A stretch of 40,549 nt of DNA from Perkinsus olseni (GCA_013115125.1 JABANN010000312.1:1-40549), one strand, 5' to 3'. Counted from the first letter of the stretch, positions 11,851 through 40,130 are shown. Made by a program: numbers and translations. Notes: generated by a model not told the origin, from the letters alone.

Positions 11851-14800
11851 TCAGAAATTATCCCAGTCAAAATCGTCTCCCCATCCCTCGCTAATCTTCC
11901 TCGCTTCATTCTTCTGTGCTGTCGTATTACTCGAGTTACTGGTTACTTTTGGGACCGGGTGAACTCCATTACCGATACTATGACCCGATGAGGTCTCCTC
12001 TTGGTTCTTCGCAGGGCCTGGAAAATAGGACCTGGCCGAAGGGGAGGGGCCTTCACTCATACCTGCTGACGCTTGCGTTGGTGCCGGATGCATCTCGAAG
12101 CGACCATCGGCAAGTTGGGTCTCATCCCGCGGGGTGTAATGCTCATTGGTCGGAGAATGTTCGCCCGGTAGTGGGACGTCATCAAACTCCCCCCAGAAGC
12201 CCTCCCCAACGTTATCAAGATTATCGTCGAAGTCCAGGTCGAGCTTAGGACCGCCAATACTCTCCTCTGGAGCTTCGTGTCGGACCTGATGGTAAAAATG
12301 GATTTCCAGCCGCCACAACCGTCCGTCGTCGGCGATTCCGTCTCGCTGCGCTCGTCCATGCGAGCGGCACTGCGAGCCCATTAAGGTTTCAGAAAGCCCA
12401 CTCCAATACCGAATAATAGAAGACTTACGTCCATTCCAGGTGAGCTGCTGGTGCTGCTACTGTAAGACGTGGCCTGTGGAACAGCTGGAGGCGGACCGTT
12501 GGTCTCAACCTTCGCATAACCCGCACGACTATCGCCAATGTTACCGGAAGTGGGACCCGCTTGCGTTACGCCCAGACCGAACCTGGTACAGCACATACTT
12601 GAGACCCTGCGAGGGCACAAAAGAGAATAGAGTGGAGAATAGAGTGGATGCGATTCGTGTACAGGGAGCATCTGGTCTTCAGTTCGATTTGCACTACACG
12701 GAACTATCTCACACATATACTATTATGCCATAGCCTACCTTCCAAAGACGTTATAAGCACCGCTGCTAGTCGAAGCGCTTTTAGCAGCAGCAGCAGCAGC
12801 AGCAGCGCCCTCAAGCCCATGAGAGTCTTTCGAAGCTTCGCCATGATCCTCCTTCAACTGGGCGACACGCCGCGCCTCTAGCATTCCCTCGCGGACCATT
12901 CTGAGGAGGAGCAAGCAATTCGAAGAACCAAAGATCAGGAAGCTGCTCGTACTTCACCACAGGCTGGAGGGCATCATAGGCAGCATCCTGAACTTCTGGA
13001 CTGGGGTCGACAAGTCGGAGGACCAACAAAGGCAATGCCTGAGAACGAGTCCCTCACCTTCTACAGCACTGAGCTGTTGAAGACGGAGATCCCGCGTCGC
13101 TCACCTTTCCTCCAAGCTCCGCTGGGTCGTAGATGCTGGATGTGGCTTGCAGCGCCTGGATGCACGCTACTCGACAGGGTGAGAAGCTGTCCTTCATACC
13201 GGTCACGAAAGCATTGAGCAGTATCTAACAGAAGCAAAGGAATGCCGTTCTCATGAATATATCCCGAGATCTTCTGAGGGGAAAGACGTCTCTTATGCAA
13301 CTGCTGCAGTGGTTGTACACGCAACGGCCATTTCGGCACGACGAAGCTTCGGCTCACCTGAGGTTTCTGTGCTGGGTCGAAATAGTCCGAGATCTTTCCA
13401 ATGCAAATGGCAGTGTTGGTACCTGGGTTCAGCGCATGACTCTTGATGCACCAGCTGGTAGTCCATACGAATTGAAGGCTCCGGATCTCCTTGGAGCTTA
13501 GTCAAGTTTCTCAGCACTTTATTAGTCACCGTCGACGTCTTCAATTTCGGTGCTAGTAAAACCTAAGATCGCAAAAAAGGTGGGAGGGGTCCTGGATTGA
13601 TCAATATACCCTTACTATAGATTTCAAGGTCTGCTCGCGTATTGCGCTGTGAGAATCGTTGAACCCGCTCGATATCTCAGGATACCTGCAGCCAACCTTG
13701 CCCATGCTGCCGTGAGACTCACCACATGCCCTACAGAGTATTTTCGACGACCTTGTTGTCCATGTGCTCAACATACACATCCATGTTGCACAAAAGTCGA
13801 TACCGAATTGTACCTGGCTTGATTGATACACGTTGGAACCAAACCGAACCTCGGGGTTTTTATCCGACAATAGATAGCAGACTGCCTTCCTCCCATAGTA
13901 ACGTGATGAGTTGTCAGCCGCTAGCTGCACCCGCGCAAGCCGCAACTTGACCAGAGGCTGGCTTCCGACTGAGAATTTCCGCAATACTCCTACGACGGTT
14001 CTACTCAGTAGAATCCGCAGAAGTCCGCAGTAGAATCTACTGCGGACTTCTGCACTCGAAAGCAGGGACGGATGAGAGCCTCGAGCCCGAGATATCACGC
14101 CAGTGTATATGCTACGCCTATATCTCATATCATTATGCTCGGAACTCCACAGCCCAGCCCACGTCCAACTTACGATCAGAAGATCCAAATAACTTCAGTA
14201 CCGTAGGAAGGAGATCTCGCTTGAACTCCTCTGGACTGAGATATGTACCTAACACCTTGACAGTAAGCATGCTTCAGGATCCTCCACCGGCAGCTAATAC
14301 TACCTATCTTCGTGAGGTTGACAAGAGCCGGAGCTGCTAATCGTGGGGCGTCATCCACTACCTGAGGTTGGAAGCAGGGCTCTACTACGATTGTGCTCCC
14401 CAAGTGAGAAGTATCTCCAGGTCGCATACGACGACCACTCACCTGGACCAGATCATGGAGGAGGACGGTCACTTGCATAGTCACCGGCAAACTCGGAAGC
14501 ACATTCGGTAGCACGCCTGAGCATCGACGAAAGAGAATTTGCAGGCACATACCATTCCAGCGGCATTCCAGAATCCGCGGCTCTTTCCGTGAAGTTGGGA
14601 ACCGCGTAGAACCTATCTGACCAGCTCGTTCGCTCCTGGCCGCCTGATTCGCACGTTCAACTGCGGGACGGTCCCGCCGGGACCAGAAAAGCGGAAGAAT
14701 TCTACGAAGACTAACTTCCGAATTAAAAGTAGCTGCGTGCCTTGTTTAATGATCGAAATTTTTAATAAAAAATGAAGCAAGCCGCAACAGAAGAAATCAT

Positions 14801-17800
14801 AGCTCACTGAGCTAAGCTCAGAGTCTCGGCGATGCAAGAACATGAGTCTTACGCCGTAAGACTTACGGCCCTCAGTAGCGACGCTCAATATTCCTTGAAG
14901 AACTCAAGACTGAGATGGAGAACTGAAGGGGCTCGTGGCACCCATAATACCATATCGAAAGTCACCCCCGTTATCAACCATCGTTTTGACGGCTTCACGA
15001 TGAGCAACCTAGGTCATAGGGTCCTGGACCCAGAGGAGCACCCGCACTGGCGATACAATCTGACCTTCAATCTGGTCTTGGATACAACTGTAAATGCCCT
15101 AGCCTATTCAACTGTTGGATATTTGGGCGTTCGAGCTTCTAGTAGCGCGGGCAGCACATACCCCGCACATGGGCACAGTAGTAGTGTTGAGACCCACCAC
15201 TTGGCATCGACGGTTATAACTATAGTCGAATCTCGGACAAGATCCATTATATCGAGGCAGCGATAGCATCACTGCAATATGAGCATACCAAATGGCGATG
15301 AGCAACCCGATGATGATATTTAGGTCGCCTTGCAACCAAACGACCGCGTCTCGTCGGCCTCGCCCTCGAACTTTCCATCTCCAAAAAGATAGACTTTCCA
15401 TCTCTCTGCCTCGGATCTGGTCGTTCAAGCCTGAGCTACTCATCTCATCTATCAAACTCCTTTTTCCCTATCGGCAAACAATCCTGTAGCATCCTCCTTC
15501 TAGCAATCCCTTAGTCTCTTCCGCTTTGACTAGGCATTGACTAGCACCATCTTCTGGGCTAGTAGTCTGCATCAACGATGAGACCGCGGCGCGCGATCAA
15601 GTTGGCCATCCCACTGAGCACGACCTGCTCGTGTCGCCATAACATGTTTTTCCATAATTACTCGGTCAGTCAGACTGACTCAGTCTAAGAGGACTGAGCA
15701 CTGCTCTACACTGGTCCAGATCCGGACCCTCTCTGGCCCCCCAACGGGGCATCGTTGAAGCTCATAAAGCTTTCAAAAGTGGTTAGATTGGTTGAAAAAT
15801 TAGCAGTGGTTCGAGCAAGGTCTCTATTATGGAGATTCTCAGAAATTCAGAAAAATTCCATTGAATTCTAGAGACTCTCTAGTAGAGAGCACTGATAGCT
15901 GTAGGTTCGCTGCGAACTTTCTACTACGAAAACTCACGAATCATCCAGCAGCCTCCTGTCCACGCGATTATTAGCACTCCCCCAACCTACTATCGAAGAA
16001 CTCATCCTGTGCTACCGCCGTCGCTAACCGAAGCTGAGACTCCAGGAAGTGGAGAATAGTAACCTGACGAGATAGGGAATAACAGAATGCTCCGGAAGGA
16101 AGAGACGACTACAACGAGAAAGCGATAGAAGACACGAACCGTTTGAATTTTCAGGCTCAGGCTCAATGTTCTCGAATGCTCAGATTGGAACCTTAAAGAC
16201 GCTTTCGAATGTTGAGCCATGAGCGATGGTCACACGAGAGATATCCGAGAGATTGATCAGTATGCAAAAGTTGTGAAAATCCTGCAAAGACTCAAAGCCT
16301 CTCGACTGGAGTAATATCACCGCCCACCTGAGGGTTCTCCTTCAGAAAACTGCTATTGGCCAATCTCGTAACCACCATACCAGCATCGCGTGACCGCGAA
16401 ATCTCGTGCAAAGAGAGACTCCGGAATCCCCCTCGATACTGAGAACAGCTGACGGTCTCCCAAGGTGCATTAGAATACCTCTCGATCGAACCAGTACTAG
16501 ACCATGTCAAGTATGCTGCTTCGCCGAGCCCGCATGCTTAGAAATATTCCAGCTCTACAACGCTATGTAGTCGACTGAGTTTTACATCGTGCATTGCGCG
16601 ATACGCTCCGAGAATTCAGCTTCAGCTCAGCGGTGGACCCCCTGCCCTAAACCCTCTAACAAGGTCAATCAAACAGAACGATGCAAGCGCCGACGAGACG
16701 ACTGGAGAAAGTTCTAAAAGCGCCCGGACACGCGAGGATATCCCCAATATTCTCACTACAACTTTAGCCATGCTCCCCTTATCACCTGACTGGGTATACT
16801 GGCCGCGGGATCCTCCCCTGGATTGAAAGATCCTTCTCCCCTATACAGCACTTCGCCATTGAGAAGATATGCCGCAACCAGAGCTAAGCCGTAGAGGTCG
16901 ACCACTGATGGATTACCCGACATGAGGTTACGTGGCGGCACAAACCTGCGACAGAAAGAAGATTGGAGGCATTGTTTCGATGCACAGAGGGGGTCCCCGC
17001 CTTGCACGTCCCCTGCAAGGGGACGACCCAGGCACTGGCGGCCAGTGGTTACTGCGCCATCACCAGCCCGCAGTACAGTTCTAGTAACAAGCACATTTCG
17101 TTAGACGACGACTAACGGCCGTATTGAACGACAATGATCGCAAAGTTCTGCAACTCCCGCCCGCGGAATCGCAAGGAATGGTCGTATTTCACCACAACCA
17201 TTTGCAATAGTTTAGTTTCCGAAGCACTATCAATGACTGCAGCACGCACCGGGAGAGGCTGGAGCACAGTGATTCACGCTGTTCACGCCCAAGGGGAAGC
17301 GTTGATGCAAATGACAACTATCGGTCATACTTCAGCTTCCGTGAGCTATAAAACCACAGCCCTCATCACCTCGTTAGGCCAGAAGAATCGATATCAGACA
17401 CAAGTCTATTGCCATCAGCCTCTGAGATCGGCCTGGCCAACTCGAAACCGCCGAGCCGGAACTCTCCTTTAGGGGTAACGAATACGGATTGGGGCCCAAC
17501 ATTACCTACATGGGAGCCGACTAATATTCTCTACCAGGCAACAAAGGAACTGGTAATCGCTCAAACACAAGTTGGCCCCACTTTTATCACAGTCCTCTAC
17601 AGAACTTTCCCACGATAGTCCGATACGTTTACCGTCAGTAAAACATATACGCCGGTAGATGAGTCCATTGTCGCTCACAGCCAGCGCTTCAATCACGAGA
17701 GACGCGCTGTTCACAGTGCCGTTGTCATCGGCGGAGGATAAGCTCATGAACCCGTACTACCGTGCACCAGTTTCCCATCCACAACCAAGAACCGCAACGC

Positions 17801-19212: not shown

Positions 19213-20788
19213 TTATAGGTGATCACTTGTTGCCGAGTCGAGTCCAGATCTGCGACAGAGAATAAGGGTACCGATATTCACAAAACTGCTATTACGAGTT
19301 CGATCCGGCCGCACGGGACGGCCAGTCTTATCAGAGCGAAGTCTGAAGTAGCATCGTTTGCAGCAGAAGGTCGGGTTATTGGGCAGCACGGGGTCGTTCA
19401 GGACGACCATGTTGGCGTAAGCGGTATTGCATAACTGAGAGAAACTGATCGCTGAGACCAACGGCACGAGTAGTTCGAAAAGTATCGGCAGCGTAGATGA
19501 TGATGCGGCAACATCCTCACCACGCATAAGGCTGCTTCGAAAAAGGACTCACCGAGCACATTTTCAAGTAGAGCTTCTGCTTCTGGTGCGTCCGTAATGG
19601 GTACACTTCGCGTACCTGTGAGGGGCTGATGGATCCTCCTAGATGCCGAGGACTTACAAGGGAGTGGACTCGAGCGTCGAGTAGAGTAACGTTGGTGAAG
19701 TAAACTCGCTCCTCCGTATTGGTGTAGTGGAGATAATAACAACACGTTGAATGCGCCTTGGGGGACGACCGATAGAGACGTTCCACACTAAGGGAACGTG
19801 CCAATGACCAGAAGACCACGGCCGAGGAAGCCTCATGCCTACGCTTCCTGGACGGTCGTCGAACGCATCTCGGCGAAGGTGATTTCAGGCAAGGCCGCGC
19901 GATCTCGCGGTGTGAAGTTGGCATCGTGCACTCGTAGCCAGTTCCTAATATGCCCTTCATAGTCTACTGGCCTGCAAAAGCAATACTCAAATCATTGAGG
20001 AGCGAAAGAGAGGTCTACTTATCGTTCGACGAGGGTTTATCTGGCGAGTCCGTGTAGACCGCATCGCCCATGACAAAACATGCTGATTTGGCGTACTTCG
20101 GACCATCGAAAACTCTGTCGGCCAAGAAACTGAAGCTATCTCGCAGGTCCTTTAATGTCTGACTGCCGAGGACGTCGAAGGACTCTACATGGTCGTTTTT
20201 ACGGAAGTTCCTCTGGTCCGTATGATAAATATCGACCGAGACGACCACTTCGCTGCCGTCTGGCATCCTGTGAAGGCCCTCAGGACCATCAACATCTTCC
20301 TCGGCAAGCCTCACTAATTGCGCATAGTCAGAGGGCAAGCCGCTCCGGTTAGCCTTGAAAAGCGCTACCCGGCGCATCTCGTTGTGTGAGATGGGCATCT
20401 TATCCTCGCCTCCACCGTAGTCCTGCTTCAGCCTTTCCGAAGCCAGATGGCCGACTCTTCGGAATCGATCGGCCCGCAATTCTCGCAGGGTAGGAGGCTC
20501 CGAGCCATCCGCCATGCAACGGTCCAGAACCTGATTGGCCTCCGCCATGCACGAAGGGAACTGGATGTCAGCGCTGGTCGACACGTCGTCAATCCGCATA
20601 CTCGGATCGACAGGAGGAGTGAAGCCCCGGGATAGCTCAGCAAAGGCCGCCAGAGCCGCTCGAGTGTCATCGGCCCACTGAGACAGGCCTCCTTCGTCCA
20701 ACACCGAATCGCGGTTATCGGGCTCTGGAGACCAACCCGCTGAGGCGATGGAGGAAAGGGAGAGTCTCGAAGACTCCGATGACTCCAT
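19213..20788 (-). CDS. SNAPC3: snRNA-activating protein complex subunit 3 (SNAP50)
   Basis: Family-like motifs: VVVSVDIYH...FDVLGSQTLKDLRDSF...KSACFVMGDAVYTD; CYYLHYTNTEERVYFTNVTL; C-terminal zinc-binding region ANMVVLNDPVLPNNPTFCCKRCYFRL. Likely ATG at 20788 (MESSESS), preceded by ctcatag-t. 3' end approximate. Confidence 0.85.
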
Positions 20789-20891: not shown

Positions 20892-22138
20892 TCACCATTC
20901 ACCAACAGCCGTCAACAATCTCCGGAAGGCTTTCATGTCTGTTAGCAAATCATCTGAGGCGACTGGAAGGTCGAGGAGAAGAGGATAACGGTCTCATTGG
21001 GCGTATCACCTGGCTGCAGACCGGCGATCACTGGGGAGTCTCTATCATATGCCCGACCCATCTCCTTAGCCTGTATAGCAAATAACAGCCCCATTGGAAA
21101 GTGAACGACCTCACTTTGTCCGGAGTCATGGACTGCGGCTGTGCGCAGAAAAGGACTCTCTTATCGTTCATCCGATACACTTTGAACCACCCCTTATCGG
21201 ATGATGTCGAGAAGCCCTCACCTGGCAAGCGGCGAGCTGAAGATCGAATCGACAATCCTCCTGCTCATCACCTGTCACCACTATGCCGGTGAACGCTCGT
21301 TGGAGGGCATTCCGCAAAGTAAAGTAGACCTCAGTTTCTGCGACAAAACATCGTCATCAGGTACCGAGCAAAGATGAGCCCGTCCAACCGACCAGCGAAT
21401 GGCTCGTATACGATATGAATCTTCGTATTAGACTTGTCCAGCGTGGGGTTGTTGAAATCTGTCTGGTAGTACGTCTTGGAGAAGTACTTCGTACTATAAT
21501 ACGGCCAACTGAGGGTTGCTGATGAATGCTAGGCAACGACCAGGCATGGTCCAAGCCAGGCCAATAACTCCAGTCAGTTCCGAGTCATGCGGGATCTCTA
21601 GTTAGCGACTTACTTCTTCCTGGTTGACCTGTTCTTCAATGTAGATGGTCGTATTCGCCTATCCGCCATAGTATGGGGTTTATCCTTGAACATCCACACT
21701 GCCTTACCATGGCTAGGTAGTGGTCCATCAGTCAGACAGCGGACACCGACAGGTCGTAAGAAGGCCACTTGCCGAGTGGACAGTAATAATGTCATGTAAA
21801 AAGTCTCAACTGAAGACAAGACAAGTGGTGAGGGAGAGGCAAGCCTAGACTTGAGCAGTCGCTCAGACAAGGCGAGGTTCGGGAAAGCGATCGCACATCA
21901 CACGTGACCTGATCAGAACGTAAAAAATGTTGAAACTGTTTAATCTCCGGCGACGCTCTCGAAGTAGCCGGAGTAACAGAACACTAGAATCGGAAGACAG
22001 CCTCACTCGACCACTGCCTACCAATGGCTACCAATTCCCTACGCAAAGCAGCAGCGTAGTCGAGCGAAAGCCATACGGAATCATCACACGATGCCTGGGT
22101 GGAGTTATGCCGTAGGGGATTCGGGGGCGAGCGCTCAT
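20892..22138 (-). CDS. Hypothetical protein ('gene X'), basic N-terminus and possible thioredoxin/Rdx-like fold; multi-exon
   Basis: In-frame spliced reading: HGKAVWMFKDKPHTMADRRIRPSTLKNRSTRK|NTKYFSKTYYQTDFNNPTLDKSNTKIHIVYEPFA|ETEVYFTLRNALQRAFTGIVVT|ARRLPGEGFSTSSDKGWFKVYRMNDKRVLFCAQPQSMTPDK|AKEMGRAYDRDSPVIAGLQP. The second copy at 25283-26046 conserves these exons. The 5' end is uncertain. Confidence 0.55.
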
Positions 22139-22373
22139 GCCTGCCCGTTCGCTCAACAAGTTACTCCAGGCGGATTTCCACGCGCGCAAATACAGTTTTC
22201 CGGCGGAGCCTGGTACTAGAAGCCGGGAGTAACTCGAGGGTAGGAACATCTGAATGATCATGACGATGGGATCAGTCGATTTTATGATCGACCTCGTCTG
22301 CCGAACACCAAGTAGGCTACTTGGAGTAGCACCCTCACGCTATTGGAGTGTTCAGTAACTCCTAAGTTGATCC

Positions 22374-23565: not shown

Positions 23566-24361
23566 ACTCGGGTATATGAGCTCGTTGGAGTGCCGGGGGC
23601 ACGCTTCGACCGGTATGAAAGCAATCTCCGACAACGTCCGATTACTCATTCTGAGGCGGCTTTCTTCTATGTTGCTGTTGTTGTTAACCATCGAGGACCT
23701 CTGGCAGTTCTTAGTAGGATTGATGTTGCTCTGTTGATACCCTAACGAAGTGTTGCGTTCCGATTAGATCCCATTTCTGGAGGCTCAGCTTTAGCACAGA
23801 ATCGTGTGGAATCCTCGAGCAACCACTCGACGAGCACACTGTGGCGAAGCAATCTTCGCCACAGACCATTTGCCGAGCGATCACCTATGAGATCATATCC
23901 GAAGCTCAAGTGAAGAGAGCTAAAGGCAGGGAGTTGAGTAGCTTGAACTGGAGTCATACAACTGCCGGAGAAATATGGTATAAAAGCGGCCTGCTATTAC
24001 GTCGACGCCGCCCGGCGTCGAGTCAGGTAACGGGAGCTTGGTGACTCGAGAGGACCTCGCCCGTAGGGCTAAGTGCGGCTATAACACCGGACCTGTCGTA
24101 CCTGCTAAGGTGAATCCTTCCTGTACTGTTGGTCATGCCCTCCCGCGGGTGTGTCATGAGGATCGGTGTTGCACTCACGTCGTAACCACGGGTTACGTTT
24201 AGATGTACTCTTATAGCCGTGAGGCTGACCCATTCTAAAGAAGTAGAGTTGAACGACAAAGCCAAACTTGCAATCACCGAGCAAATTGCTCGGAGCAATG
24301 TTAGCACAGCTTCTGCTCCCTATTCTGTCTGTATTACAGACACCTGTACCCATTACAGGCT

Positions 24362-24423
24362 CTGTAATGGGTACACTTCGCGTACCTGCGCGGAATGAAC
24401 AGCTGATGGATCCTCGCAGATGC
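24362..24423 (-). pseudogene. Duplicated SNAPC3 exon/intron fragment
   Basis: ctgtaatgggtacacttcgcgtacctg...gctgatggatcctc matches 19592-19646 (ccgtaatgggtacacttcgcgtacctgtgaggggctgatggatcctcc). Confidence 0.85.
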
Positions 24424-24560
24424 TAGGTGATCCGACTGTCGGGTGAAGTAACCCCAGGACCAACTGAGCATCAATCAACTAACGACTAGACATGAACTAC
24501 GATCCCGATGGTCGGAGCCCTACCACGTCCGCTAAAAGACCGTCAACACCTTGGGCTGTT

Positions 24561-26469: not shown

Positions 26470-29400
26470 TCACTCGCCCTTCGTGGAGGGATACCAGTGA
26501 TCAGTCATAGCGTCGGGGTATCGTCGAGCAACTTCGCTCCGCCAGTAGTTGAGGACATCTTTGACGGTTTGTTGAATCTCATTGGCTGGCATCCATCCCG
26601 TTAGGTTGCGCAACTGACAGCATGATACCATCAAAGGGCAGTAGGCGCTGTCATGTCTACCTTGGCGTTGTCAGCGATGAGTACAGCTTCATCATAGGCC
26701 CGCATTCTACTCTCATCCTGCCTCAGCTCAATGCGTGGCCCTATAGGAGACTCAGCCAGCACCAGACGGAGGAGTTGTTCGGTGGACAGGACCTAGCGGG
26801 GAGGATGTGAGGATTAACGCCCTTCCCGTTGTCGAACCCCATTGTGCCGACTAGAATCGAACTCCGCAATCTGATCATCGATCCCTTGTCCCTCTCTTTC
26901 AGCAGCGGCGACTGCCTCGGCCACGTAGCTGCCCACGTTATACACCTCTCCCGGAGCGGAAGTCTCCAGGACCTGCAGGATGACCCCAGCACAGGGGATG
27001 GGATCAACTAGGGATGCACTTTGATGAGCTGCGTGGCCGAGTCCCGAACATCAGTTGTGTCTCGACGTGTCTTCAATGCACCATGCCTGGCCGCGGGACA
27101 GTTCCCACTCCGATAAAACTAGCTGGACGTGCCGACCTTATCACGGGCTCCTGCTTCCCGCCCTCGATCATGGCAACTTGACGGGAGAACTCCTGCAGGG
27201 CCAATGCCTCGGTCCCACCAGGCGAGACGTGGATGAAGAGCCGAACAGCTACGCAATGGGTTCCTGAGGGTGACGGAGCCGACCACATGAAGGGGCGGAG
27301 CCCGAAAGCCTCCCACCGTGGGCCTTGTGCTGCTGAAGGCATATCATCTCAGTAGCCGCCTTACTGACACCATAGGGAGACACCGGTCCCATCGGTGCCG
27401 ACTCGGGAATAGGTCGTCCGATGTAGTCCGGGCTATCCGATGTACCTAGAGAAGAATTATCCACAGGCCACCATCAATGGCTGTGGTACTCCCATAGACA
27501 GTGCTGCTGCTTGCCACTAACACCCGTGCACCCATACCCCGGAGGGCCTGCATGACATTAGAAGTCCCCTCGACCTGAACCAACTACCGGTAACCAGCTG
27601 CAGGCCATTCCCTCGATGCTTCTACGTTAGACTTGTAGGTGAGAGTCTCGGACTGGAAGGATACCCCATTGATGGCTTGAGCGGCGAAGTGGAATACCGT
27701 GTGGGGGCGGACCTCTGCTGAGGGCAATCGTGTAGGACGGCATCCGCCGCCACTGACCCCGGATGATGTCCTGTATGCGCTGTGCATCGGTGAGGTCTCC
27801 ATAGGTGAGTTTGATATCCTCCAGCACCCCGGCCAGATTACCGAGATTGGCGCGGTACCGCACCAACCCGAACACAGCATAGTGAGGTCCTTTCACGTCC
27901 TCGGAGTTGGAGAGCCCCACCTGTGATCAGACCTGCTATCATTACTACAAACTCAGGCCATACCAAAGCCTTAGCGATGTTGGAGCCGATCATGCCGTTG
28001 ATGCCTGTTATCCACACACGGACGACCCGTCGTGAGGTGCCTGGTGTGGCCACCGTCGGTGGTGTGTAATAGAGAATGTACGCTCACTGTTGAGAACCCC
28101 AGCAAGCGAAGGCACTCCTTGAGGGGGCACTGCCTTGTGGCCGTTCCCATTAGCCATAGCAGCATCAGCCCAGCTGCGAGAATCCCCAGTGGCAGATGAT
28201 GCTACCCTTGGCCATCGATACCTGGACCGCAATTACAGTCTTATACCTGCCTACCGCTCTAGCGGCTACGTACCCCAAAGATATGAGGGCCTCGATCCAC
28301 CGCTGCACATGGTTGACCTGAACACAAGCAGTAATGCTCCTTGGTCACGACATCGACTGGCGCTATCGTTCGCAGTGAGCCGCCTATGATGATGGAGGAG
28401 AGGACTTGGGATCACCGCATACTGACCTCATCCTCTTCTACGAAGCCCCTGCGGTATAATTCTACGTAGACCTCCTCAAGGCGAGCAGGTAGAGTGCCTG
28501 GTAGAGGTATAGCACAGGACACCCACCACACAGACTACCGCTAGTGGGCACCCATTCCGCCAAGAACTTCATCATAGCCTCTGACTTCTTATAAACCTAA
28601 CGATGGCCCTGCGGGGCCGCCCAGCAAGGAGCATTACATCATCCTCCGCGATAAAGTCAGCAAGATAATCATGAGAGTTTCTGAGCTGCCTCACCCAAGT
28701 ACGGCCTGCCACGGCCACCGAGGCCCCTAGGTCCCAGAGGAGCCTTTGCAGGACCTAAGCAAGTCGTCATCATCATCATCATCAGCAGTAGGGAAGCCCT
28801 GGCGACATACGAAACTCCGCCATATATCACTAACACGTCCGTGGACCTGAGGGGCCCATCACTACCAACGGAGACTCCGAGGTGGGTTACTGTAACAGGG
28901 AGGTAGAGTCCCCATAGAGCATCATAGTCTCTAAAGAGGCATGCTTGTGCGTTGAGAGGCGTGAAGGCTGGAGGGTTCAGGAGGAAAGCTGACGTAGTGA
29001 GCTGGTGGAAATCCACCGGCAGGGGACCTGGCCCCGACAGCATGCTCAGCCACGCGGACCACAGCAGACGCACGGGTTAACCGGTAGATAGCGTCGAAGT
29101 CAGGATCATGATCGGCCAGTGTCTGGACGACAGCCACCTTCCGCGCCCATGTATCTGACCATGGGCCTGCTGCCCAGACTAAGTTCGGACCACCTTTCGA
29201 AGTGGGCTCTGTTATCGTAGTTGAGCGCTGGCGACGGATGTATCGTAGTGGAAAGCCTCTAGGCCACAGGACTTCCTGCGGGTGGACATTGGCTATGTCC
29301 ATACCTGATTGCCGGCAACAAGAGCCTCGGGTAGATCACGGAACGACTACTAATGAGACTAGGCCCTACTACTACGGCTACTATTGGCAATACTACTATA

Positions 29401-31138: not shown

Positions 31139-31404
31139 GGGTAATTCCCAAAATCCAAGGGAAAGGTACAAAATCCAAGGAGGCACTTTCGGGGATCGTG
31201 TTGCCCACGGTAATAGTTCCGGTTTCTGGTTGCCCTGGGTAACAGTTTCGGGATCGGGTTGCCCTGTCGGGTTTCGGGAGGGGTTTCTGGTTTCCTGTTC
31301 CTGCCTTCACCCGCAGTTCAGGGTTTTTTTCTGTTGATTTTGCCTCCCTGCCGCACGCGCTTCCTTGGATTTTGTACCTTTCCCTTGGATTTTGTACTTC
31401 ACCC
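31139..31404. mobile_element. 266-bp MITE, Mutator (MULE)-type
   Basis: ~43-bp TIRs beginning GGGT, with a perfect 33-bp core (caaaatccaagggaaaggtacaaaatccaagga at 31149-31181; reverse complement at 31362-31394). Flanked by a 10-bp direct repeat cggaagaaat (31129-31138, 31405-31414). TSDs of 9-11 bp and G-initial TIRs are typical of MULEs. Confidence 0.9.
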
Positions 31405-31550
31405 CGGAAGAAATGTAGGGCAAGCGCATAGAAGGTTGTAGAAAGAGCTAGATGCTATCGGGGAGGGTGTGAGGTGTATTTCTGAGCGCAATAGGAATCA
31501 AGACATCGGAGTTCAGCTCAGTTTTGTTGTCGAGTGTTGACAGTGCTGTA

Positions 31551-32963
31551 ATGCCTCGCTCTCCCTCCGTCTTCCTTTTGTCAGTGGTGCTGATCATCCT
31601 ACCACACCCTGCGATACTCACAGCACAGCCCGACACGGCAGTGGTTCTTATAGAAGGTTCTAACGGCAATCCAGTCGGTATAGGAGATGCTTTCTACCGG
31701 CACCGGAATGTACTCGGGCAGTTGGGGTATCCACAGGAAAGACTTGACCGATTAGCAATGTGCTTCAGAGTATCTAAGGAATCTACCGCAATAGAGAACT
31801 TGGGAACTATCGGGGCCCAAATAGTCCACGGTGGAGGTCCGGACTGCCCAGCGTCGGTTGTAGAGATTTGTGCATTGGTCGAGGACATAACACCGTATGT
31901 AGACTACAGGGAGCTCTCCTGCACAGATGGATCGCAGCTGAGTTCGCCCGCACTGAGCACAGGTAGGGCGGATGGATCGGTCACTGCTGGAGCGATCCTG
32001 AGAGCACACCAAAATGTGTTGAGGTATCCTCCTAACGACCCTTTATTCCCACGACAGAAGAGATTTTTCCAAGCCCTGCGTATTGAGGAGACTTGGGAGG
32101 CGGTGCGGCAATCGGGCCTCCCGCGGAAGGATGTCATCGTGAGCTTAGTAGATGATGGTGTACCCGGTGGACATCCCGAACTCAAGGGTAAGCTGCTGAA
32201 GGGATACGACGTTGGTGGCGCCAAAAATAAGTCTCTATTGGTTAAAAGTGGTCACGGCACGGCGATGGCCGGTATCATCGCCGCGAACATCAATAATGGG
32301 ATAGGTATCGCTGGCATCGCTGACAAAGTCAAACTGCGTCCGATAGATGACGTGAACCCCATAACGGGTAAGGCCACTCTGTCCATGACAATGCGAGCGT
32401 TGGAAGCGACCCTTCGTTTCAAAAAGAACGACGTTATACTCTTCGCTGCTGGATATCCGTATGGACAGAAAACTGCCTTGTTATTTAAGCGCGTACTGGA
32501 AAAAGCTGTGAAGAAGGGCATACTATTCCTCACGGCCGTTTCCAACAAAGACGATGCGGATGGCATGGAAGAGTTGCTCTTGCCGTGCTCATTAGCGAAT
32601 GGTATCCCGGGGGTCCTCTGCATCGCGGCAACCACTGCGAAAAATCCTTTCGTCCTCTCGCGCAACAGCTCGCGGCTTGCCAGTTTTGGAGCACCCGGCA
32701 CGGATGTCTGGCTGCCAACACGGAAACGTGACGGAGACGACTGGATATATAAGAATCGCAAGGGCGCATCTGCTGCCGCAGCAGCTGTTGCTGGTATAGT
32801 CGCTCTGATGAAGAGTTTCAAGAATTTCAAACCGAGGGATGTCGAGAGGATACTTCTAAATTGTACTGAGGGTAGAGTCAGAACTGAAAATGGAGCAGAG
32901 ATGTTCTACGGTGTTCTCCGACCTGATCTTGCAGTCAGTCAAGCAATAGCCGAAGCTCGATGA
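31551..32963 (+). CDS. Secreted subtilisin-like serine protease (S8), intronless
   Basis: Signal peptide MPRSPSVFLLSVVLIILPHPAILTA and a prodomain, then PNDPLF. Catalytic Asp VSLVDDG, His GHGTAMAGII, oxyanion Asn AVSN, Ser GASAAAAAVAG. Confidence 0.92.
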   Translation: MPRSPSVFLLSVVLIILPHPAILTAQPDTAVVLIEGSNGNPVGIGDAFYRHRNVLGQLGYPQERLDRLAMCFRVSKESTAIENLGTIGAQIVHGGGPDCPASVVEICALVEDITPYVDYRELSCTDGSQLSSPALSTGRADGSVTAGAILRAHQNVLRYPPNDPLFPRQKRFFQALRIEETWEAVRQSGLPRKDVIVSLVDDGVPGGHPELKGKLLKGYDVGGAKNKSLLVKSGHGTAMAGIIAANINNGIGIAGIADKVKLRPIDDVNPITGKATLSMTMRALEATLRFKKNDVILFAAGYPYGQKTALLFKRVLEKAVKKGILFLTAVSNKDDADGMEELLLPCSLANGIPGVLCIAATTAKNPFVLSRNSSRLASFGAPGTDVWLPTRKRDGDDWIYKNRKGASAAAAAVAGIVALMKSFKNFKPRDVERILLNCTEGRVRTENGAEMFYGVLRPDLAVSQAIAEAR

Positions 32964-33199: not shown

Positions 33200-36100
33200 C
33201 ATGGCCATCAGTATGCCTGCCAGGTAGTGGTCACCGGCCTGCCTTCTGGCACCAGCCGTACTTCATTAATCTAATCAGTGACAGCATCATCTATTGGACT
33301 CCTGCGTCGTTTGAGGCCTACACGGACGATTGCCCTGTCCAGCTTGTTTTGTTGTTGTCACGATGTTATGGCCTCGGGGTGAGGTTTTCGACCATGCCAC
33401 CGTCCATACTGCAGTGCGTTGGAGCGTTCGAGATGTAATGGAGTTTTTAAAGGGCCTCAAGTAAGACCTAGGGTAGGGACTCGATCGTTGCTCATCTCCG
33501 AGCGCAGGAAGTCGATTCCCGGCACGGCTGTACTACGGACACGATTCCTGGACTACTGTGCGGATCCTGGCGAACATACACCACATCTCACCCAGGCCGA
33601 GGCAGTCGCGTAGGGATCGCCCCCTGGGGGGCCAGCCAATGGAGTCGTAACGGCTGCCGTTCTTGCCGTAGATACTGGACGGTATTCTCGAATATTAACC
33701 GAGCCGTCTTCCCGTCCCCTTCCGGCAGCAGCAATGCTTCCCTAAAAACCTCGGCATCGTTGGGTGATGCTAATGACTGGTGTGATATACGCGTTCTTGG
33801 AGTACTACTCTTCCTCCAGGTAGTGGGCGTGGCCTGAGACTGTGTTCGCGTGTCCGAGATCACTACGGCATATACTGTTGCAGATTTTCAGCCACTCCGC
33901 TGAATTGATCTTACTCGTAGGGGAGTGGCTAAGCTTAGTATCGAGTTAGTGGTCGTCTGGGGAACAGAGTGGATACAGACACGGTCGTTCCTCCTTCTTC
34001 CTTTGCGTTGAGGCCTCCCTCAGATCCTCCCGTATTCTCGTAACCTCAGACAGGAGTCATTCAGAAGAGGGACAGCAGCAGGGGAATCCTGGGTCCAGGC
34101 TCTTCCGGACGGTAGTACTCGGGGCAGTGGGAACCCTTTACTGGGGTTAGCACATATTGGTGACACGCAGACGTCACCGTGGCAGTTTCACTGCCACTCC
34201 GTAAAGGTAGCTACACCTCGTCGCCCACTGCTCATCGTCGTAATGCGTTATGACTCTGTCTGATGTCCGCTGGGGTGAACGATCTCTCGCATGTATTTTC
34301 TTTCAGTGTCAACGGCCGCTCATTCGCCCCGGTCCCAGTCCCAGGTAGTAGTAATAGCATCAGCATGACCTTCGAGATCCACTTGTATCGGATCCTCTCA
34401 GCAATCCCCTCGAGCATCGATGGTCATGTCGTCGCAGATCAGTGGTGGGCGAATTGGACGGGATAACCAGCAGGCCGTTGGGTTCATAAGGTGATGCTGG
34501 GAAAGGATCTGCCCGTTACCGTCACCATACTGAATAGTCACTTCATGCGCGAACCTTTCGTGGTGTATTCTCAGCCCAGCTAGTACTCAATGGCTCGGGT
34601 TTGGTTCTCAGGACACATTGCGCCAGCCTGTTGCGGATAGTATGTCAATGTTTTGAGGACCCCAGTGGAGCATCATCCCCAACATCGTCCCCTCCCAAGA
34701 AGGAAGTCAAAGTTGATAAGGTCTCATCAGAGGCAATGGACAAGCTGGGGTGCGATCCGAGGTTCTCTCGCTCAGTGCATCGAGCTGGTGTCTTCCTCCT
34801 CCAGGATCCTTATCGCTGGTGGCCCATCATTTGGGTCGCCCTGCAAGACCCTTCACGAAGCCGTGTTTGCGCTGAGCGGCGCCTCATCACTGCGGAGTCG
34901 TATCTCCAGTAGCCCTAGTATTGCCTTCGAGAAACTACAGGTAGGGAAGGGTCGTGTTAACTGATGGCTCTTGTGACGTCCTTGTTAGGGTCTCATCGAA
35001 TCCAACTTGGTTTGGAATGAGGTCGTCTACACCCCCACGCTGGGCACCAACAAGTCTGGCCCAATAAACACTGAGAGCCCATCTAGTTGTGCAATCGGGT
35101 AACCTAATCGTCATTGACATCCTCAGGGTTGGAAGATCCTTAGCAGGTATCGGTCGTTAACCCTCTCTGGTTTGTCTAAAACCACTATTCTCCGAGATGT
35201 TACCCGTGGTAGCTCAGCGACGGATTTGTTGTATATCTCCAATTGTAGCGAGACCGTCATCTACCTCACTGGTGAGTACGCTGTGGTTATCATCGTTCTC
35301 TGCCTACCGCTTGTGGTAGGTCCGATAAGATTTGCGGCGGTGGTCGGGTGTGTTGACTGTGATATAGTGTTGTTGTGCTGCACCTGTCAAGTCTCTGTGG
35401 CGAACTGCGAGCGGTGCAATATCCATACTATTACAACGGCGATAAGGTGAGGCTCTCACCGCACTATGAGGGTCTTGGTCACTCCTTCTTCTATCAGGCT
35501 GGAAAGCGGAGTTGATGTGAACCTGTACACACTTACTCGGGTAGGTCCCATCACTGGGCCGACTCTGTTGCCATCGGTGTGCTCTCAGAATCCGCCTGTG
35601 ATCACTGGCGACTGCCGGGGCATCAAGTTAGCGCCCTTCAACGTTTTGTATAGTGGAAGTGCTGCGTTACTTGAGACGGCGGGGATGCTCGATCTCATAG
35701 GCACCGAGACGGAGCCGCCAAATCGATACGCGGTAGGGCAAGCGTGCGGACGGCTCGTTCTTGTCAATCCTATTCCTGAGCAGGCCGGTATCTGGGCGCA
35801 TCCGACATGGTGTCCATTGATGCCGGACGCAGGAGGGGATCGTGCGTCGTCGGCTAGTGCCACCTCGAACAGGAGTTCGACCGGTTCTGTTGGATCCGAC
35901 AAGCAGGCCACACAGGGATACTATCTCGTAAGGAGTTGCCGAAGGGTAATTGATCTCAAATTGGATGGTATCATCAGATGGCACCGGAGAGCTTCAATAC
36001 GGTCAGTTTTCCCGAGCCTCGAAGTGCTTCGCGTGAAGGGGGCCTTGACGGAGGCGAAACCGTACCCAAATTAGCATTGCCTGAAGTGTACTATGACGCG
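33200..36100 (-). mobile_element. Possible heavily decayed retroelement pol/integrase-like remnant
   Basis: A long coding-like but stop- and frameshift-riddled stretch with no evident intron structure. Weak integrase-region-like fragments: GLLVIP...H; YLRQERQPLRLHW...RPG*DVVYVRQ. No diagnostic motif confirmed. Confidence 0.3.
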
Positions 36101-36979
36101 CTGGTAAGTTAAGGATATGAGATAGGAAGTTCTTTCATGCGTGCGTTTGTCAGGAGGAGCGGCGAGAAACCCATGCGAAATTATGCGGCCAGCTAGATGA
36201 GATTGCCGATAGTGCTCGGCGGCAGCAAGTATCGGAGCTGATGGAGGGCTACTTCCGAGAATGGATTGCTAACACTAATCGGACGCGGCAGCTGGTAGAC
36301 TTGGTCAGGATATCTCAAGAGCAGCGGGAAGGTCGAGACAGAGCGAGTAGTGGCCGCGACCATTAGCGGAGCATTATATTCCTTGGGTATTATTCGGAAG
36401 ACCTTCCTCTCGGCCCTTCATCGCCACCCATATCATTTATGAGCTGTCTCCATTTATGCGCTCAAATGCATGGTGTTTCAAGTCACAATCACAGTCAGTC
36501 AGATGAGCTAATCCGCTTCGGCCAGCTGCGGCGTAAGAAATCAATGGCGGATGATTTGCCGAACCAGCATAGGAATTGTAATGCCATCACGATATGTCAT
36601 ATCGTTCGGCATATTAGGCGACGTCGTCGCCTAATCGCCGCGACAAGCAAATCTCGACACCGACACCGTGATATCCGCATCCTGCGGTACAACGTCTGAG
36701 ATATTATATCCCTGGCCTACCTCAGGTGATGCAGCTGCGGCAGCTGAGCTGCCGAACGACAACAGCGTCATACTCTTAGTGGTACACCACAACCCGCTGC
36801 CAGCGGGCCGCTGGACAGGCAACCGGTGCTAGGCCACAACAGGTGACAATACGACTATCTAAAAATATGATTAACTAGGGACATCTTATGTGAGCACTCC
36901 AACAGCATCGGCTACAGGCTGCAGGTCGGCAGGTTGCAATTTGCAGCGATTGTTGATCTCACATTGATTCTAGTCTTAC

Positions 36980-37270
36980 ATGTTTGTAAAGCATTGCTTA
37001 ATGCCTCTGCCGCATCTGCAACGAGTAAGGTTGAACTTCAACCGTTGAAGTAAGGCCGTGGAGCTAAGTAAGTAACAACTTGTCACTAAGTAAGGCCAGC
37101 GAATGAGGACCACACGGGCCATGGAGCGGAATGTCGCTCCTACTGTATGAGTCCTACAGTCTCCTGAATTTCATTACTCGTTAATGCAGAAGCTATAGGT
37201 CTGGACTCCAGACTCTGGAGTGACCCGTCCATTCGAGGCCACTCCTGAGCAGTAGGGCGTACCCAGTCAG
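36980..37270 (-). mobile_element. Degenerate MULE transposase fragment, copy 1
   Basis: Reads PIASALTSNEIQETVG...GATFRSM...TLLVADAAEALSNALQTC, broken by insertions. Paralogous to 37800-38050. Confidence 0.7.
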
Positions 37271-37708
37271 CTCAGGTCCGATGTAAAATCAACAGCACGG
37301 CTTAACTCTTGCATAAGAAAGTTACTCACCTCTTGTGATATCCTCGTCTTGCGGAGCCAATCCGGTATGCTGAGTATCCAACTCTGAGCCGTCAGAGGCA
37401 ATAGTGCTGCGGTTTGTGGAAGTTGATGTGGGCCGCGATCCGTCCGGGAACCCCATGTCATTGTCTCTCACAGACTTAGGCCGAATAGATTGGGATGTGC
37501 CCCATTCTCCTCGGTTCTATCAATTTGACACTATTGGAGTCACGTCTCTCAGAGAGCCTCCGGACACAGAAAGTTTCTTGGCAAAACCAGCATCGTGTCC
37601 ACGCGATCAGGTGTCGATTCTGGTTAAAGTAACAAGAAGGGCGATTTCGTCGAGGACGATTCGACACCGACGACCCACGTGTCCCAGGCTGGGACTCCCA
37701 GCATAGTC

Positions 37709-38050
37709 CTACCGGGAATGACAGAGGTGACGTAGTCCTCGTACAGCTCGCGACACTAATGGTGTTTCAGCGATTGTTGATCCCGCATTGAATGTAGTAT
37801 TACATGCTTGTTGAGCATTGCTTAATGCTTCCGCTGCATCTGCAATAAGTACGGTTGGTAGGTAAGGACCACGTAGCTCCTCCGGCTTTTGCGCCACGGA
37901 GCGGAACATCGCCCCTACAGCCTCCTGAGTTTCACGACTCGTTAATGCAAAGGCTATCGACCAGGTCGATAGCAGGTCGATTCGACCTGCAGTGACCCCT
38001 CCAATCGAGCCCACCCGTGATCAGGAGGGCATACTCAGTGAACCAGCTCA
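37709..38050 (-). mobile_element. Degenerate MULE transposase fragment, copy 2
   Basis: SIAFALTSRETQEAVGAMFRSVAQKPEELRGPYLPTVLIADAAEALSNA matches the MULE core pattern (P/S)xAFAL..ET.E....F..........P.(V)II.D...A(L).NA around the second catalytic Asp. Confidence 0.75.
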
Positions 38051-38849
38051 TCATGATTATCGATTTCAATGAAATCATTTCACCATCCTTCACATGATCC
38101 TCGATCTCTTCTTTGATATCAAGTCTCCTCCGCCTCAGGGATGGAGGGCCTCCATTGGAGGCGTTCCCACTTCCTTAGCTCTGCAGACCCAACACCGCAA
38201 ATATGGTACTTGCCTCTCAACGAACTGGTCCTCTTGCCCAGCTTTCGAGTTCACGATACTTCCCCAATGCTTTGTACCCTCCTTGAGTGAGTGAAGCTCT
38301 CTTTCTTTCGCTCTCAGTCTGAGAGCCTCAAAGCCATTTGCACATTCCTGAAAACCGAATCACGATATGCATCTCTTCATATTATGAAGTTCACAAATCG
38401 AGTCGAGAAAAACTCGAGTCGAGTGAGTCGAGTGACTCGACGTTGGACACTTACTTTCGGTTCCATATCTTGGTTATTTTAGGTCCTGATTCCTTGAAGC
38501 GATTATACGAAATAGAACAGGATCGCCAGGTACGTCCTTCCTTCTCTTCTAGGGTCTGGATGGAAGGGTCAGGATTTCCTCCGGCGTACAGCCTGGACAC
38601 TTGAGTGATGTCAGATGGATGTCCGACCTTCAATGCCGGTTTATGCCAGCATCACTCGCGTTACGCGAGTCGGCTCCATGTTCCGGCCTTGTGCAGTTTG
38701 CTCCCACCTTTCTCTCGCTGGGAGGTTGCAATCAATAGACATGAACCGCATCCTAATGGACTATGAACGAATAGTGTGCGATACAGCCGAGCGTGAGTAC
38801 CGTACTCAGAGTACCTAAACCTGCCCGGCAACTGCCCTGTTGCAGACCC

Positions 38850-38888
38850 CTGGGCGCGGCACTATTCATTAAATAGTGCCGCGCCCAG
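38850..38888. repeat. Perfect 17-bp GC-rich hairpin with 5-nt loop
   Basis: ctgggcgcggcactatt-catta-aatagtgccgcgcccag. Confidence 0.9.
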
Positions 38889-39899
38889 TGGCTTCAATAT
38901 CAGTTGTCCACTTGATAAATAGTATTCAACTCTTCAACAGCCGAACGACATCAAACCCTGTACTTAAGAGTTTGGTCTCTTTAAGTGCCGGCTTCATGTT
39001 TATCTCCCTAAGCGGTAGATCGCTAAATGGGCATCTCATTGAGATGATCTCAACCAGATGCCGCGTCGAGGATGTGAGCCGCGAGTGCGGTAGGCCGCCT
39101 ACCGTAGGCGTATCCGGGGTTTGATCAACTAACTCGGGTAAGTGTTCAGCACGAACCTTGCGTACGGTCTGCAGTCAAGATGTGTCAGTTTTTCGACTCT
39201 GTTCTCTCATTCGAAGACGCCTTGCAATAATATTGCTCGCTATTATAATATGAGCATATTATGGTCGCTGTCTGATGGATATCCCAGGGATATTATCCCT
39301 GGAGTCGGTGAGCTAGCTTATGGGAGTGGAGTGCCCCAAGGCTATGATGAAGCTATGCAGTTAGCAATCGTCAAGCGCGGATCCCCCTTTAGGCCGTATT
39401 GGGTACGCGCCCACGGGTTTTTCCCCCAAACGGTCTTTCTCTTACCCGGAGCAAAAAGGTGCGTCACTGACATGCGGCGATGGTACATGAAGCAATTTGG
39501 GGAGCGCAGCTCCGGCGGACACCGACAGTAGATCGGTCAAGATCATATCTGCTTAGGAGAACCCGGTCGAGCAGTGCCTGTGGTGATGATTCCAGACTGG
39601 AGCTCAGCCCGGGACCTTGGCAGGACTCCAGGCAGATGCTTTTATCGATGATCGACCACATGAAGCCTGTATGCAGCATCATGCTGGAAGTTGTCCGCTT
39701 GTTACGGTGATCAGTGAGGCCTGCCTGGCGAGAAGAGACTTCATTCTCAACGGAAACAAGTCATCCTGATTCGACCGAAGAATTTCGAGAGTATTCCCAC
39801 CCACTCAGTATTTCTCGCAATACTAGCACACTTTGCAGCAAGTATAGCCCACATATAGTGACGGCGAATGAACTTGGTTGGCTTTTCGTCAGTCAGATC

Positions 39900-40130
39900 A
39901 TGAACTGCATTCCTCTCCACTATTCGAATTCCTTGCCCCAATAACTCGTGCTATTCCGGAGTCTCATCTCACTGTTTTAGGCTAAAACTTTTAGCCGATA
40001 ATATTGGGCCGATATAGTTCGCGTGAGACTTTGCCGTATCCTTCCGCGAGCGTGCAACCTCCTAATCTTCGAAGATACGGGCTCCATTTAATGTCGCTCA
40101 CTCGGACGTGCTCCGGAACAGCCTCCCCCA
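39900..40130 (+). pseudogene. Intron-retaining fragment of the TM-RING gene (or a paralog), inverted relative to the gene
   Basis: Reverse-complement match to ~8590-8795: an exon (with TAA and an insertion), the GTGAGACTTTGCCG intron and the next exon YGLHLMSLTRTCSGTA. Confidence 0.85.

Follow-up and report, generated by a model that had tools for sequence, protein, structure and literature searches.

The window analysed here, a stretch of 40,549 nucleotides from Perkinsus olseni (JABANN010000312.1:1-40549), carries many short structures in which an 8-nt word, Z, is read forward, in reverse and forward again. In its perfect form the structure is a 22-mer laid out as Z1-7 + revcomp(Z1-8) + Z2-8; Z is single-copy in the empty site, and the gain per event is exactly 14 nt. 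These 22-mers and their variants, referred to below as scars (none is assigned to a strand), occur roughly once every 250 bp between 36.7 and 40.0 kb, and none lies inside the three ORFs with Pfam matches, which are the ORFs checked for them. At the right-hand edge of the window, a high-copy repeat starts at a sharp boundary (40477..40549, plus strand). It begins with GG, contains a 16-nt subterminal repeat (period 16, 1.9 copies), has a sequencing depth of about 2000 against 113 and is flanked differently in its other copies, making it a candidate transposon end.

Perfect palindromes with a one-nucleotide centre and arms of at least 7 nt number 50 in the window, when compared with 2.56 ± 1.8 (maximum 9) in 100 dinucleotide shuffles, and 43 of the 50 can be assigned to 22-mer-type events. 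Even spacers of 0, 2, 4 and 6 nt yield 1, 2, 4 and 5 palindromes, which is the chance level (for spacer 0, 1 against 2.5 expected), so that the excess of one-nucleotide spacers proposed by a first-pass annotation is borne out. Overlapping double palindromes occur 18 times, against 0.04 in shuffles. When both arms must be at least as long as the distance d between the two centres, all 16 pairs in the window lie at d=7, with none at d=6 or at d=8-13. The annotation had described arms of 6-10 bp, a range that gives way to a fixed geometry; its view of a common architecture rather than a sequence family stands. Scored against the 14 pairings of the 22-nt model, 16, 5 and 3 sites of the window have 0, 1 and 2 mismatches, where chance predicts 0.00015, 0.006 and 0.12, giving 24 sites with at most two broken pairings against 0.13 by chance. 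In 16 of 16 perfect scars one centre is complementary to Z8 and the other to Z1, a rule that also holds when true empty sites are consulted, one at 37454 and one in the paralogue that lacks the 39974 scar. A duplicated word of 8 nt is implied by the 16 perfect canonical scars and by three irregular ones, while a word of 7, 9 or 10 nt fits no canonical or irregular scar tested.

The perfect canonical scars, in which all 14 pairings are intact, begin with a group at 14663..14684 (Z=GCGGGACC), 14800..14821 (Z=TAGCTCAG), 14847..14868 (Z=TCTTACGG), 15665..15686 (Z=GTCAGTCT) and 15868..15889 (Z=CTAGAGAG), followed by 24278..24299 (Z=CGAGCAAT) and 36732..36753 (Z=CAGCTGCC). Several of the remaining ones can be compared with paralogous copies in the window or with contigs from two divergent samples, X7 and X8, which are 95-99% alike to the window. 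The scar at 36793..36814 (Z=CCCGCTGG) is missing from both samples, which lack exactly 14 letters at 36794; that at 37029..37050 (Z=GGTTGAAG) is missing from a paralogue at about 37857; that at 37199..37220 (Z=GTCTGGAG) is again missing from X7 and X8 (14 letters at 37200); and that at 37681..37702 (Z=GTCCCAGC) is missing from X7 (14 letters at 37682). At this last scar, the X8 contig alignment has the same gap total as that of X7 (21). The scar at 38141..38162 (Z=ATGGAGGC) is common to X7 and X8, whose contigs cross it without gaps. Contigs of both samples have a single 14-letter gap in 38915-39170, so that either the scar at 39032..39053 (Z=CATCTCAA) or that at 39089..39110 (Z=GGTAGGCG) is missing there. 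The series ends with 39279..39300 (Z=ATATCCCT) and 39974..39995 (Z=GTTTTAGC), the latter missing from a paralogue at about 8711 and present, gapless, in X7 and X8. All 15 sites listed in the first-pass annotation are present and their structure is real, although its list missed three perfect scars (37681, 38141 and 39032) and several decayed ones.

One of the 14 pairings is broken in the scars at 10437..10458, 22309..22330, 38062..38083 (common to X7 and X8), 38375..38396 and 38794..38815, and two are broken at 9705..9726, 37137..37158 and 38311..38332. A further decayed scar (39994..40015) adjoins the one at 39974 and has three broken pairings, one of them through a CpG transition; its paralogue lacks it. 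Irregular scars also consist of palindromes with one-nucleotide centres, and were scored on eight constraints, which follow from a target duplication of 8 bp whose end bases are complemented. At 13999..14053 the arms measure 7 and 18 nt and the centres (14006 and 14035) lie 29 nt apart (Z=TTCTACTG); at 24326..24375 the centres are at 24334 and 24360, the innermost pair of the second palindrome being broken (implied Z=GTCTGTAA); and at 37953..37990 the arms measure 10 and 9 nt with centres 18 nt apart, at 37963 and 37981 (implied Z=ATCGACCT). All three agree with 8 of 8 constraints. The last had been listed with the other sites; it is real, but an irregular variant rather than a canonical scar, and X7 and X8 contigs starting at 37982 are preceded by the eight letters predicted for its empty site. 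A probable fourth case, with a long left tail and a short right one (36613..36646), agrees with 7 of 8 constraints and is marginal taken alone.

This rigidity bears on the possibility that a repair polymerase made the scars by switching templates, through a Pol-theta-type snap-back or a fork U-turn in which a 3' end would copy a few bases of the opposite strand in the backward direction before resuming forward synthesis, a route that needs no transposon. The product of such a path is formally the same as forward-reverse-forward movement along local sequence, templated inverted insertions are a recognized signature of Pol-theta-type and template-switching repair, and no transposon was found in the window. 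Small inverted triplications arising by replication error have moreover been published, though with units of about 148/160/148 bp (PMC13334657). The products of template switching would be expected to vary in length and in loop size; here, the inverted piece measures 8 nt without exception, and 16 of 16 cases have their turning points 7 nt apart, with none at neighboring distances. Even the three irregular scars have exactly 8 nt bracketed by their outermost turning points, which a duplicated target accounts for and switching does not. The iterative, Pol-theta-like snap-back that the first-pass annotation offered as its first option leaves the constant 8-nt unit and 7-nt turning points unexplained, coming from a stochastic polymerase, and snap-back insertion of variable length and loop does not describe scars of invariant length and spacing. 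We therefore consider template switching improbable.

Both empty and scarred alleles were observed at at least six sites when contigs rebuilt from public runs were compared with the window over 36400-40549. X7 and X8 have some of the window's scars and lack others, and the reverse is also seen: at 37454..37461 (Z=CATGTCAT), where the window has an empty site, both samples carry a perfect new scar whose 14 inserted letters are exactly those that the model predicts from the window's empty site, while at 38027..38034 (Z=GGGCATAC) they carry a scar one letter short, with 13 letters inserted behind the empty site. Of the 12 indels between strains with the best support, 5 are scar events. In paralogue alignments the insert is missing and Z occurs once, in agreement with the earlier observation that the paralogous copies lack the structure at 37029, 37199/37953 and 39974, and the empty sites in paralogues and in X7 and X8 confirm that the sites are insertions. 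The scars at 36980 and 37804 occupy the same position in two diverged paralogues. Ranging from strain-polymorphic to decayed, with some shared between paralogues, the scars fit a long-running biological process.

These comparisons also make an assembly, amplification or sequencing artefact extremely unlikely. Palindromes can trouble assemblers, and one contig of run X5 does break within the inverted repeat at 38847-38891. Against this, contigs rebuilt from public runs of two studies, which may be the source samples, show 0 differences from the window across 36400-40474, arguing that the structure does not stem from one assembly; other strains carry part of the scars and are exactly 14 nt shorter where one is missing; some scars have decayed through point changes; and two scars occupy equivalent positions in diverged paralogues.

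We think it likely that the scars are donor sites of a cut-and-paste transposon with 8-bp target duplications, excised through flank hairpins by the chemistry of the hAT superfamily; that an element was inserted and excised, that hairpins formed and how the ends were repaired is what we infer from these structures. Insertion of the element would duplicate Z, leaving one copy on each side. The transposase would then nick one nucleotide inside each flank and seal each chromosome end as a hairpin with a tip complementary to the outermost Z base, which would supply the one-nucleotide centre. Opened by host nucleases far from the tip, the hairpins would leave a long 3' tail on each side, one bearing Z and the other its reverse complement. 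Since the two tails can pair along all 8 nt, they would anneal and be joined through microhomology, and the product would always read Z1-7 + revcomp(Z) + Z2-8, 22 nt long and 14 nt longer than the empty site. Tails joined at another point may account for the irregular scars with their longer arms. The annotation had offered, as its second option, repeated hairpin sealing and opening as in hAT or RAG footprints: hAT-type hairpins come close to the evidence, whereas repeated sealing is unneeded, one hairpin on each side of an 8-bp duplication being enough to give the whole 22-mer in a single step, and the RAG geometry is excluded.

The element itself was sought in several ways. No pair of inverted ends flanked by an 8-bp direct repeat was found in the window, and no transposase family was recognized, either among the 122 ORFs of at least 90 aa found across the whole window or, in its scar-rich parts, among 67 shorter ones of 45-89 aa. 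A filled allele is likewise missing from the contig matches listed for other strains over 36400-40549, where short contigs would break at a high-copy insert. In the Perkinsus literature found, only Dada and Merlin-related transposons, not hAT, are on record. The hAT target nTnnnnAn shows only faintly: 26 sites give 52 symmetrised counts, of which T2/A7 make up 21 (p=0.006 before correction), which is not significant once corrected for about 48 tests. Plant-type short footprints, which keep both copies of Z with the two middle bases complemented, were found in none of six candidates, and the repair outcome would therefore need to be unusually uniform. Similarly, one scar per about 250 bp calls for a very mobile element.

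The missing element leaves room for a host dimeric nuclease or transposase-derived enzyme that makes cuts staggered by 8 bp in ordinary DNA, closes the ends into hairpins and leaves no element behind, whether by hit-and-run, aborted transposition or domestication. In its favor, the geometry is enzyme-like in its rigidity, and neither a resident element in the window nor a filled allele among the contig matches listed was seen. It would, however, require two copies of Z before the hairpins form, and to our knowledge only a completed insertion followed by gap repair produces them; from what is understood of DDE transposases, we know of no enzyme that acts in this way on bare DNA. One 40-kb window is also too small to call the element missing, and we regard this explanation as unlikely.

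Instead of hAT proper, the source of the scars might be MULE or Merlin, other superfamilies that duplicate 8 bp, which seems to us possible but doubtful. Merlin makes 8-9-bp duplications and its ends begin with GG (PMC8101967), relatives of it are reported in Perkinsus marinus, and the repeat at 40477 begins with GG and has subterminal repeats. This repeat is, however, tied to no scar, and we know of no description of how Merlin cleaves DNA. The MULE Muta1 likewise forms flank hairpins, yet MULE excision is reported to be precise in more than 90% of cases and to be repaired differently from hAT (PMC5499845), and the complemented one-nucleotide centre is documented for Ac/Ds, a hAT element (PMC5873905).

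In a more far-reaching but less probable reading, Perkinsus may harbor an extremely mobile cut-and-paste element, possibly of a superfamily such as Merlin, or a transposase-derived nuclease without a resident element. If so, scars would be a leading class of insertion in non-coding DNA, as their density and their share of strain indels would have it. Their near-total uniformity would imply that hairpins in this lineage are opened at a long distance from the tip and that breaks are rejoined almost only through microhomology, pointing to weak or absent Artemis/Ku-type end joining.

Among known systems, RAG and Transib form hairpins without an offset, yielding palindromes without a central base, and their duplications measure 5 bp. 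The scars share with them palindromic additions from off-centre opening of flank hairpins, and differ in their 8-nt unit and in having no spacer-0 analogues of the triple structure for d>=5 in the window, which excludes the RAG/Transib geometry. Hermes, as Zhou et al. reportedly found in 2004, nicks one nucleotide into the flank. It resembles the inferred element in its 8-bp duplications (PMC10368747) and in the flank hairpins that are formed by hAT, MULE, Transib and RAG (PMC5499845); unlike Hermes, which prefers nTnnnnAn, the window scars show this pattern only faintly. Pol-theta insertions and small inverted triplications also read local sequence forward, in reverse and forward, but are variable or far larger: the FEN1-linked triplications (DUP/INV/DUP of about 150 bp) have spacers of about 30 bp (PMC13334657), and the scars, with 7-8-nt units and one-nucleotide centres, are not of this type. 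The closest likeness is to Ac/Ds, whose footprints have been studied in yeast, Arabidopsis and Candida (PMC5873905 and PMC1978519, which cite Lazarow 2012, Huefner 2011, Yu 2004 and Weil & Kunze 2000). Ac/Ds palindromes are centred on the complement of the element-adjacent base (PMC5873905), so that the one-nucleotide centre, which the annotation took to be undescribed, has a documented counterpart; hairpin opening and microhomology joining are reported in Arabidopsis and yeast (PMC1978519). In common with the scars are the 8-bp target duplication, the palindromic P-nucleotide insertions, the complemented centre, arms that are long if the hairpin is opened far from its tip and microhomology in joining (PMC5873905, PMC1978519). 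In contrast to Ac/Ds footprints recovered with reporters, the window scars are natural, fixed or polymorphic, and their element is not seen; short footprints of the kind often met in plants and Candida do not occur in the window, which is dominated by one product, a full inverted 8-nt word between two 7-nt copies. Taken together, the scars are best read as a kind of footprint already known from hAT excision, at a density that is unusual in this shellfish parasite.

Palindromes with exactly one central base are over-represented in the window: with perfect arms of at least 7 nt we counted 50, against 2.56 ± 1.8 expected from 100 dinucleotide shuffles, and at spacers of 0, 2, 4 and 6 nt the same arm length returned 1, 2, 4 and 5 palindromes, with about 2.5 expected for each from the same number of shuffles. 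The one-nucleotide excess supposed in a first-pass annotation, made by eye, is thus borne out within the window, and all 15 of the 15 forward-reverse-forward sites that it listed are present. Overlapping pairs of palindromes number 18, with 0.04 expected (100 dinucleotide shuffles). When each arm is required to be at least as long as the distance between the two centres (d), there are 16 pairs, exclusively at d = 7; at d = 6 and throughout d = 8-13 the window has none, nor does it hold centre-less equivalents of the paired structure at d of 5 or more. The double palindromes of the annotation therefore stand, but its loose range of 6-10 nt for the arms does not, the geometry being far stricter. 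Each 22-mer, which we call a scar, reads as the first seven nucleotides of an 8-nt word Z (Z1-7), the reverse complement of all eight, and the last seven (Z2-8), so that the two central bases complement the outermost bases of Z. Under this 22-nt model, with its 14 required pairings, 16, 5 and 3 sites are found at zero, one and two mismatches, versus 0.00015, 0.006 and 0.12 by chance, and with d set to 6 or to 8 instead the window shows no comparable peak of low-mismatch sites. Altogether, 43 of the 50 strong one-nucleotide-centre palindromes could be assigned to 22-nt-type events.

The state before insertion was read from two repeat pairs inside the window and from contigs of public sequencing runs. 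The scar at 37029 is missing from the repeat copy at about 37857, where Z occurs once, and neither the 39974 scar nor its decayed neighbour at 39994 is present in the copy at about 8711, Z being single in each case. Contigs of X1 and X5, from runs of two studies, match the window over 36400-40474 with 0 differences and possibly represent its source samples; those of X7 and X8, two further samples that carry the same organism label, are mostly 95-99% alike to it. At 36794 and 37200 both X7 and X8 are shorter by exactly 14 letters, at 37682 X7 is shorter by 14 letters, and somewhere within 38915-39170 both carry a single 14-letter gap; the scars at 38062, 38141 and 39974 are common to the window, X7 and X8. 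Behind 37454, X7 and X8 have 14 additional letters, exactly those that follow under the model from the empty site in the window (Z once, neither element nor scar), and behind 38027 they have 13, the predicted scar less one letter. The annotation was right to regard the structures as insertions: the empty sites of paralogues and strains are shorter by exactly 14 nt. Such events make up 5 of the 12 indels listed, out of 36, between strain contigs and the window, and the process is therefore recent, polymorphic in both directions and non-artefactual. There are older scars too, some with point changes, and two 3-mismatch copies (36980 and 37804) occupy the same position in diverged paralogues. Strain polymorphism and decayed copies both contradict an artefact, which we consider excluded.

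The same comparisons revealed other structures. At 38517-38522 the X7/X8 contig has 27 extra letters and a 6-nt repeat; most of the extra letters copy 21 nt of the left flank in inverted orientation around a 3-nt centre, a fold-back event longer than, and unlike, the 22-nt form. At 39228-39259, 32 nt are missing from X7 and X8, and short-arm palindromes with one-nucleotide centres imply two different 8-nt words, so that two overlapping events may be superimposed. An inverted repeat at 38847-38891 (20-nt arms, 5-nt spacer) troubles short-read assembly, since the X5 contig breaks exactly there, its loose end being a run of G. An inverted repeat pair of about 200 bp (8594-8793 and 39899-40127, 83-85% identity) connects the left part of the window, which is rich in genes, with its scar-rich right end. 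Long open frames (8061-8693, minus strand) overlap one of the copies, and the other may thus be a pseudogene fragment.

If the 22-mer consists of two hairpin-derived palindromes around a duplicated target of 8 nt, the same 8-nt rule should hold at irregular sites. The seven nucleotides leading up to the first centre (as Z1-7) should then overlap with the seven that follow the second (as Z2-8), and the two centres should complement Z8 and Z1, making eight constraints in all. Three irregular sites, with centres at 14006/14035, 24334/24360 and 37963/37981 (spaced 29, 26 and 18 nt apart), agree at all eight; with the duplication taken to be 7, 9 or 10 nt long, no site in the window satisfies all constraints. 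At 37963/37981 the X7/X8 contigs start with the 8 nt predicted for the empty site. The pair at 36624/36639, agreeing at seven of eight, is on its sequence a probable fourth irregular scar. A search of the ORF at 13601-14194 against longer proteins, made to locate exons around the scar at 13999, gave no match. The irregular sites bear on polymerase snap-back or template switching, the former having been proposed in the annotation. Its topology would be identical to that of the scars, but it predicts variable lengths where their geometry is invariant, and the bracket of 8 nt kept by the irregular scars also speaks against it; the evidence thus argues against this origin. Published small inverted triplications, as described in the available part of PMC13334657, have about 150 bp per arm, a size unlike that of the scars.

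Neither an element nor a transposase was found in the window. The window contains no 8-bp direct repeat around 14-nt inverted ends, and contigs of other strains yielded no filled allele, that is, a site with the element still inserted. Pfam detected no transposase domain among the 122 ORFs of at least 90 codons in the whole window, nor any transposase among 67 ORFs of 45-89 aa in 13900-16100, 24000-24600 and 36000-40549, and an Rfam scan of the window gave no match. Only three Pfam matches were obtained among the 122 ORFs: to a RAP domain (2977-3252, minus strand), to SNAPC3 (19213-19548, minus strand) and to a subtilase (31473-32963). The subtilase frame runs for 496 codons, and its best named relatives, with P. 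olseni first at 86% identity and P. marinus and P. chesapeaki next, all belong to Perkinsus, so that the window can be assigned to a species of this genus. Several segments duplicated locally (120-760 bp, 76-94% identity; 20990-21814, 24560-24887 and 25018-26589) suggest a small tandem gene or segment family.

Several candidates were rejected. Segments skipped by other strains' contigs were considered as elements, and none of the 11 junctions has inverted ends or duplications; several resemble repeat cross-mapping. Just upstream of the subtilase frame lies a 246-bp MITE-like element (31149-31394). Its inverted ends, 44 nt long, are 91% complementary, and a 29-nt tandem repeat lies between them; it was dismissed as the source, matching 8-nt flanks being absent. 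A 66-codon frame within the scar-rich region (38454-38651, minus strand) matches GCR1_C weakly (E = 0.0014, short of the Pfam cut-off) and may be a mobile-element relic. The window ends in a high-copy repeat (40477-40549) with a sharp left boundary at 40476/40477, a depth of about 2000 versus 113 (about 20x unique sequence in three runs), other copies with different flanks, and a 16-nt subterminal unit repeated 1.9 times just inside the end. This is probably a DNA transposon end and the cause of the contig stop, and nothing links it to the scars. A 9-nt match between it and the scar at 14670 is at chance level among many 9-10-nt matches. When metagenome contigs were scanned for exact matches to the end of the repeat, there were none.

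By title and abstract, we found no paper on scars or palindromes of such kind in Perkinsus, a protist parasite of bivalves; Ds footprint catalogues may list the inverted-duplication product. Our searches returned almost nothing on transposon traffic or hairpin-break repair in perkinsozoans, and a P. marinus CRISPR paper makes no statement on the organism's end-joining genes. The scars offer a natural, dated record of this traffic and this repair. As exact 14-nt presence/absence differences between strains they would serve as simple isolate-typing markers for a shellfish parasite of commercial importance. Once their origin is understood, they should also not be taken for errors of assembly, hairpins with a regulatory role or a mutational process of a new kind.

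The published signature of hAT excision combines a duplicated target of 8 bp, flank sequence copied in inverted orientation and centres that complement the flank base beside the break; the scars have both the duplication and the complemented centre. Excision would leave each chromosome end as a hairpin with the complemented outer base of Z at its tip. Opened at least 8 nt from the tip, the hairpins would give 3' tails carrying the reverse complement of Z and Z, which could pair across all eight bases, by far the best microhomology on offer; trimming and filling would then produce the 22-mer. If the direct Z copies annealed to each other, the original site would be regained exactly, with no visible trace, and joining elsewhere would yield irregular scars. 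A transposon-free nuclease would not easily do the same, the two Z copies needed by the hairpins being hard to make. The uniform product suggests repair by microhomology. Short plant-type footprints (none of six candidates in the window) and tandem 8-nt duplications show no excess there, and the lack of the former fits a lineage in which hairpin opening at the tip and homology-free end joining are both rare. Among the scars the target pattern of hAT elements is faint and does not stay significant after correction. With 15 canonical scars within 36732-39995, the element would have to be highly mobile or, like Ac, prone to local hops.

Hermes, as Zhou et al. reportedly found in 2004, nicks one nucleotide inside the flank. 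It generates 8-bp duplications (available part of PMC10368747). The palindrome arms of Ac/Ds footprints reach 20 nt in yeast (available part of PMC5873905). According to the accessible text of PMC5499845, flanking DNA is hairpinned by hAT, MULE, Transib and RAG alike. The transposons reported from P. marinus in the literature searched are Dada and Merlin-related, not hAT. The scars may instead be of MULE or Merlin origin. In Arabidopsis and yeast, hairpin opening is followed by microhomology joining, as PMC1978519 states in its available part. The proposed mechanism, which would work like the formation of Ac/Ds footprints, is textbook; the density, uniformity and lineage of the scars are not.
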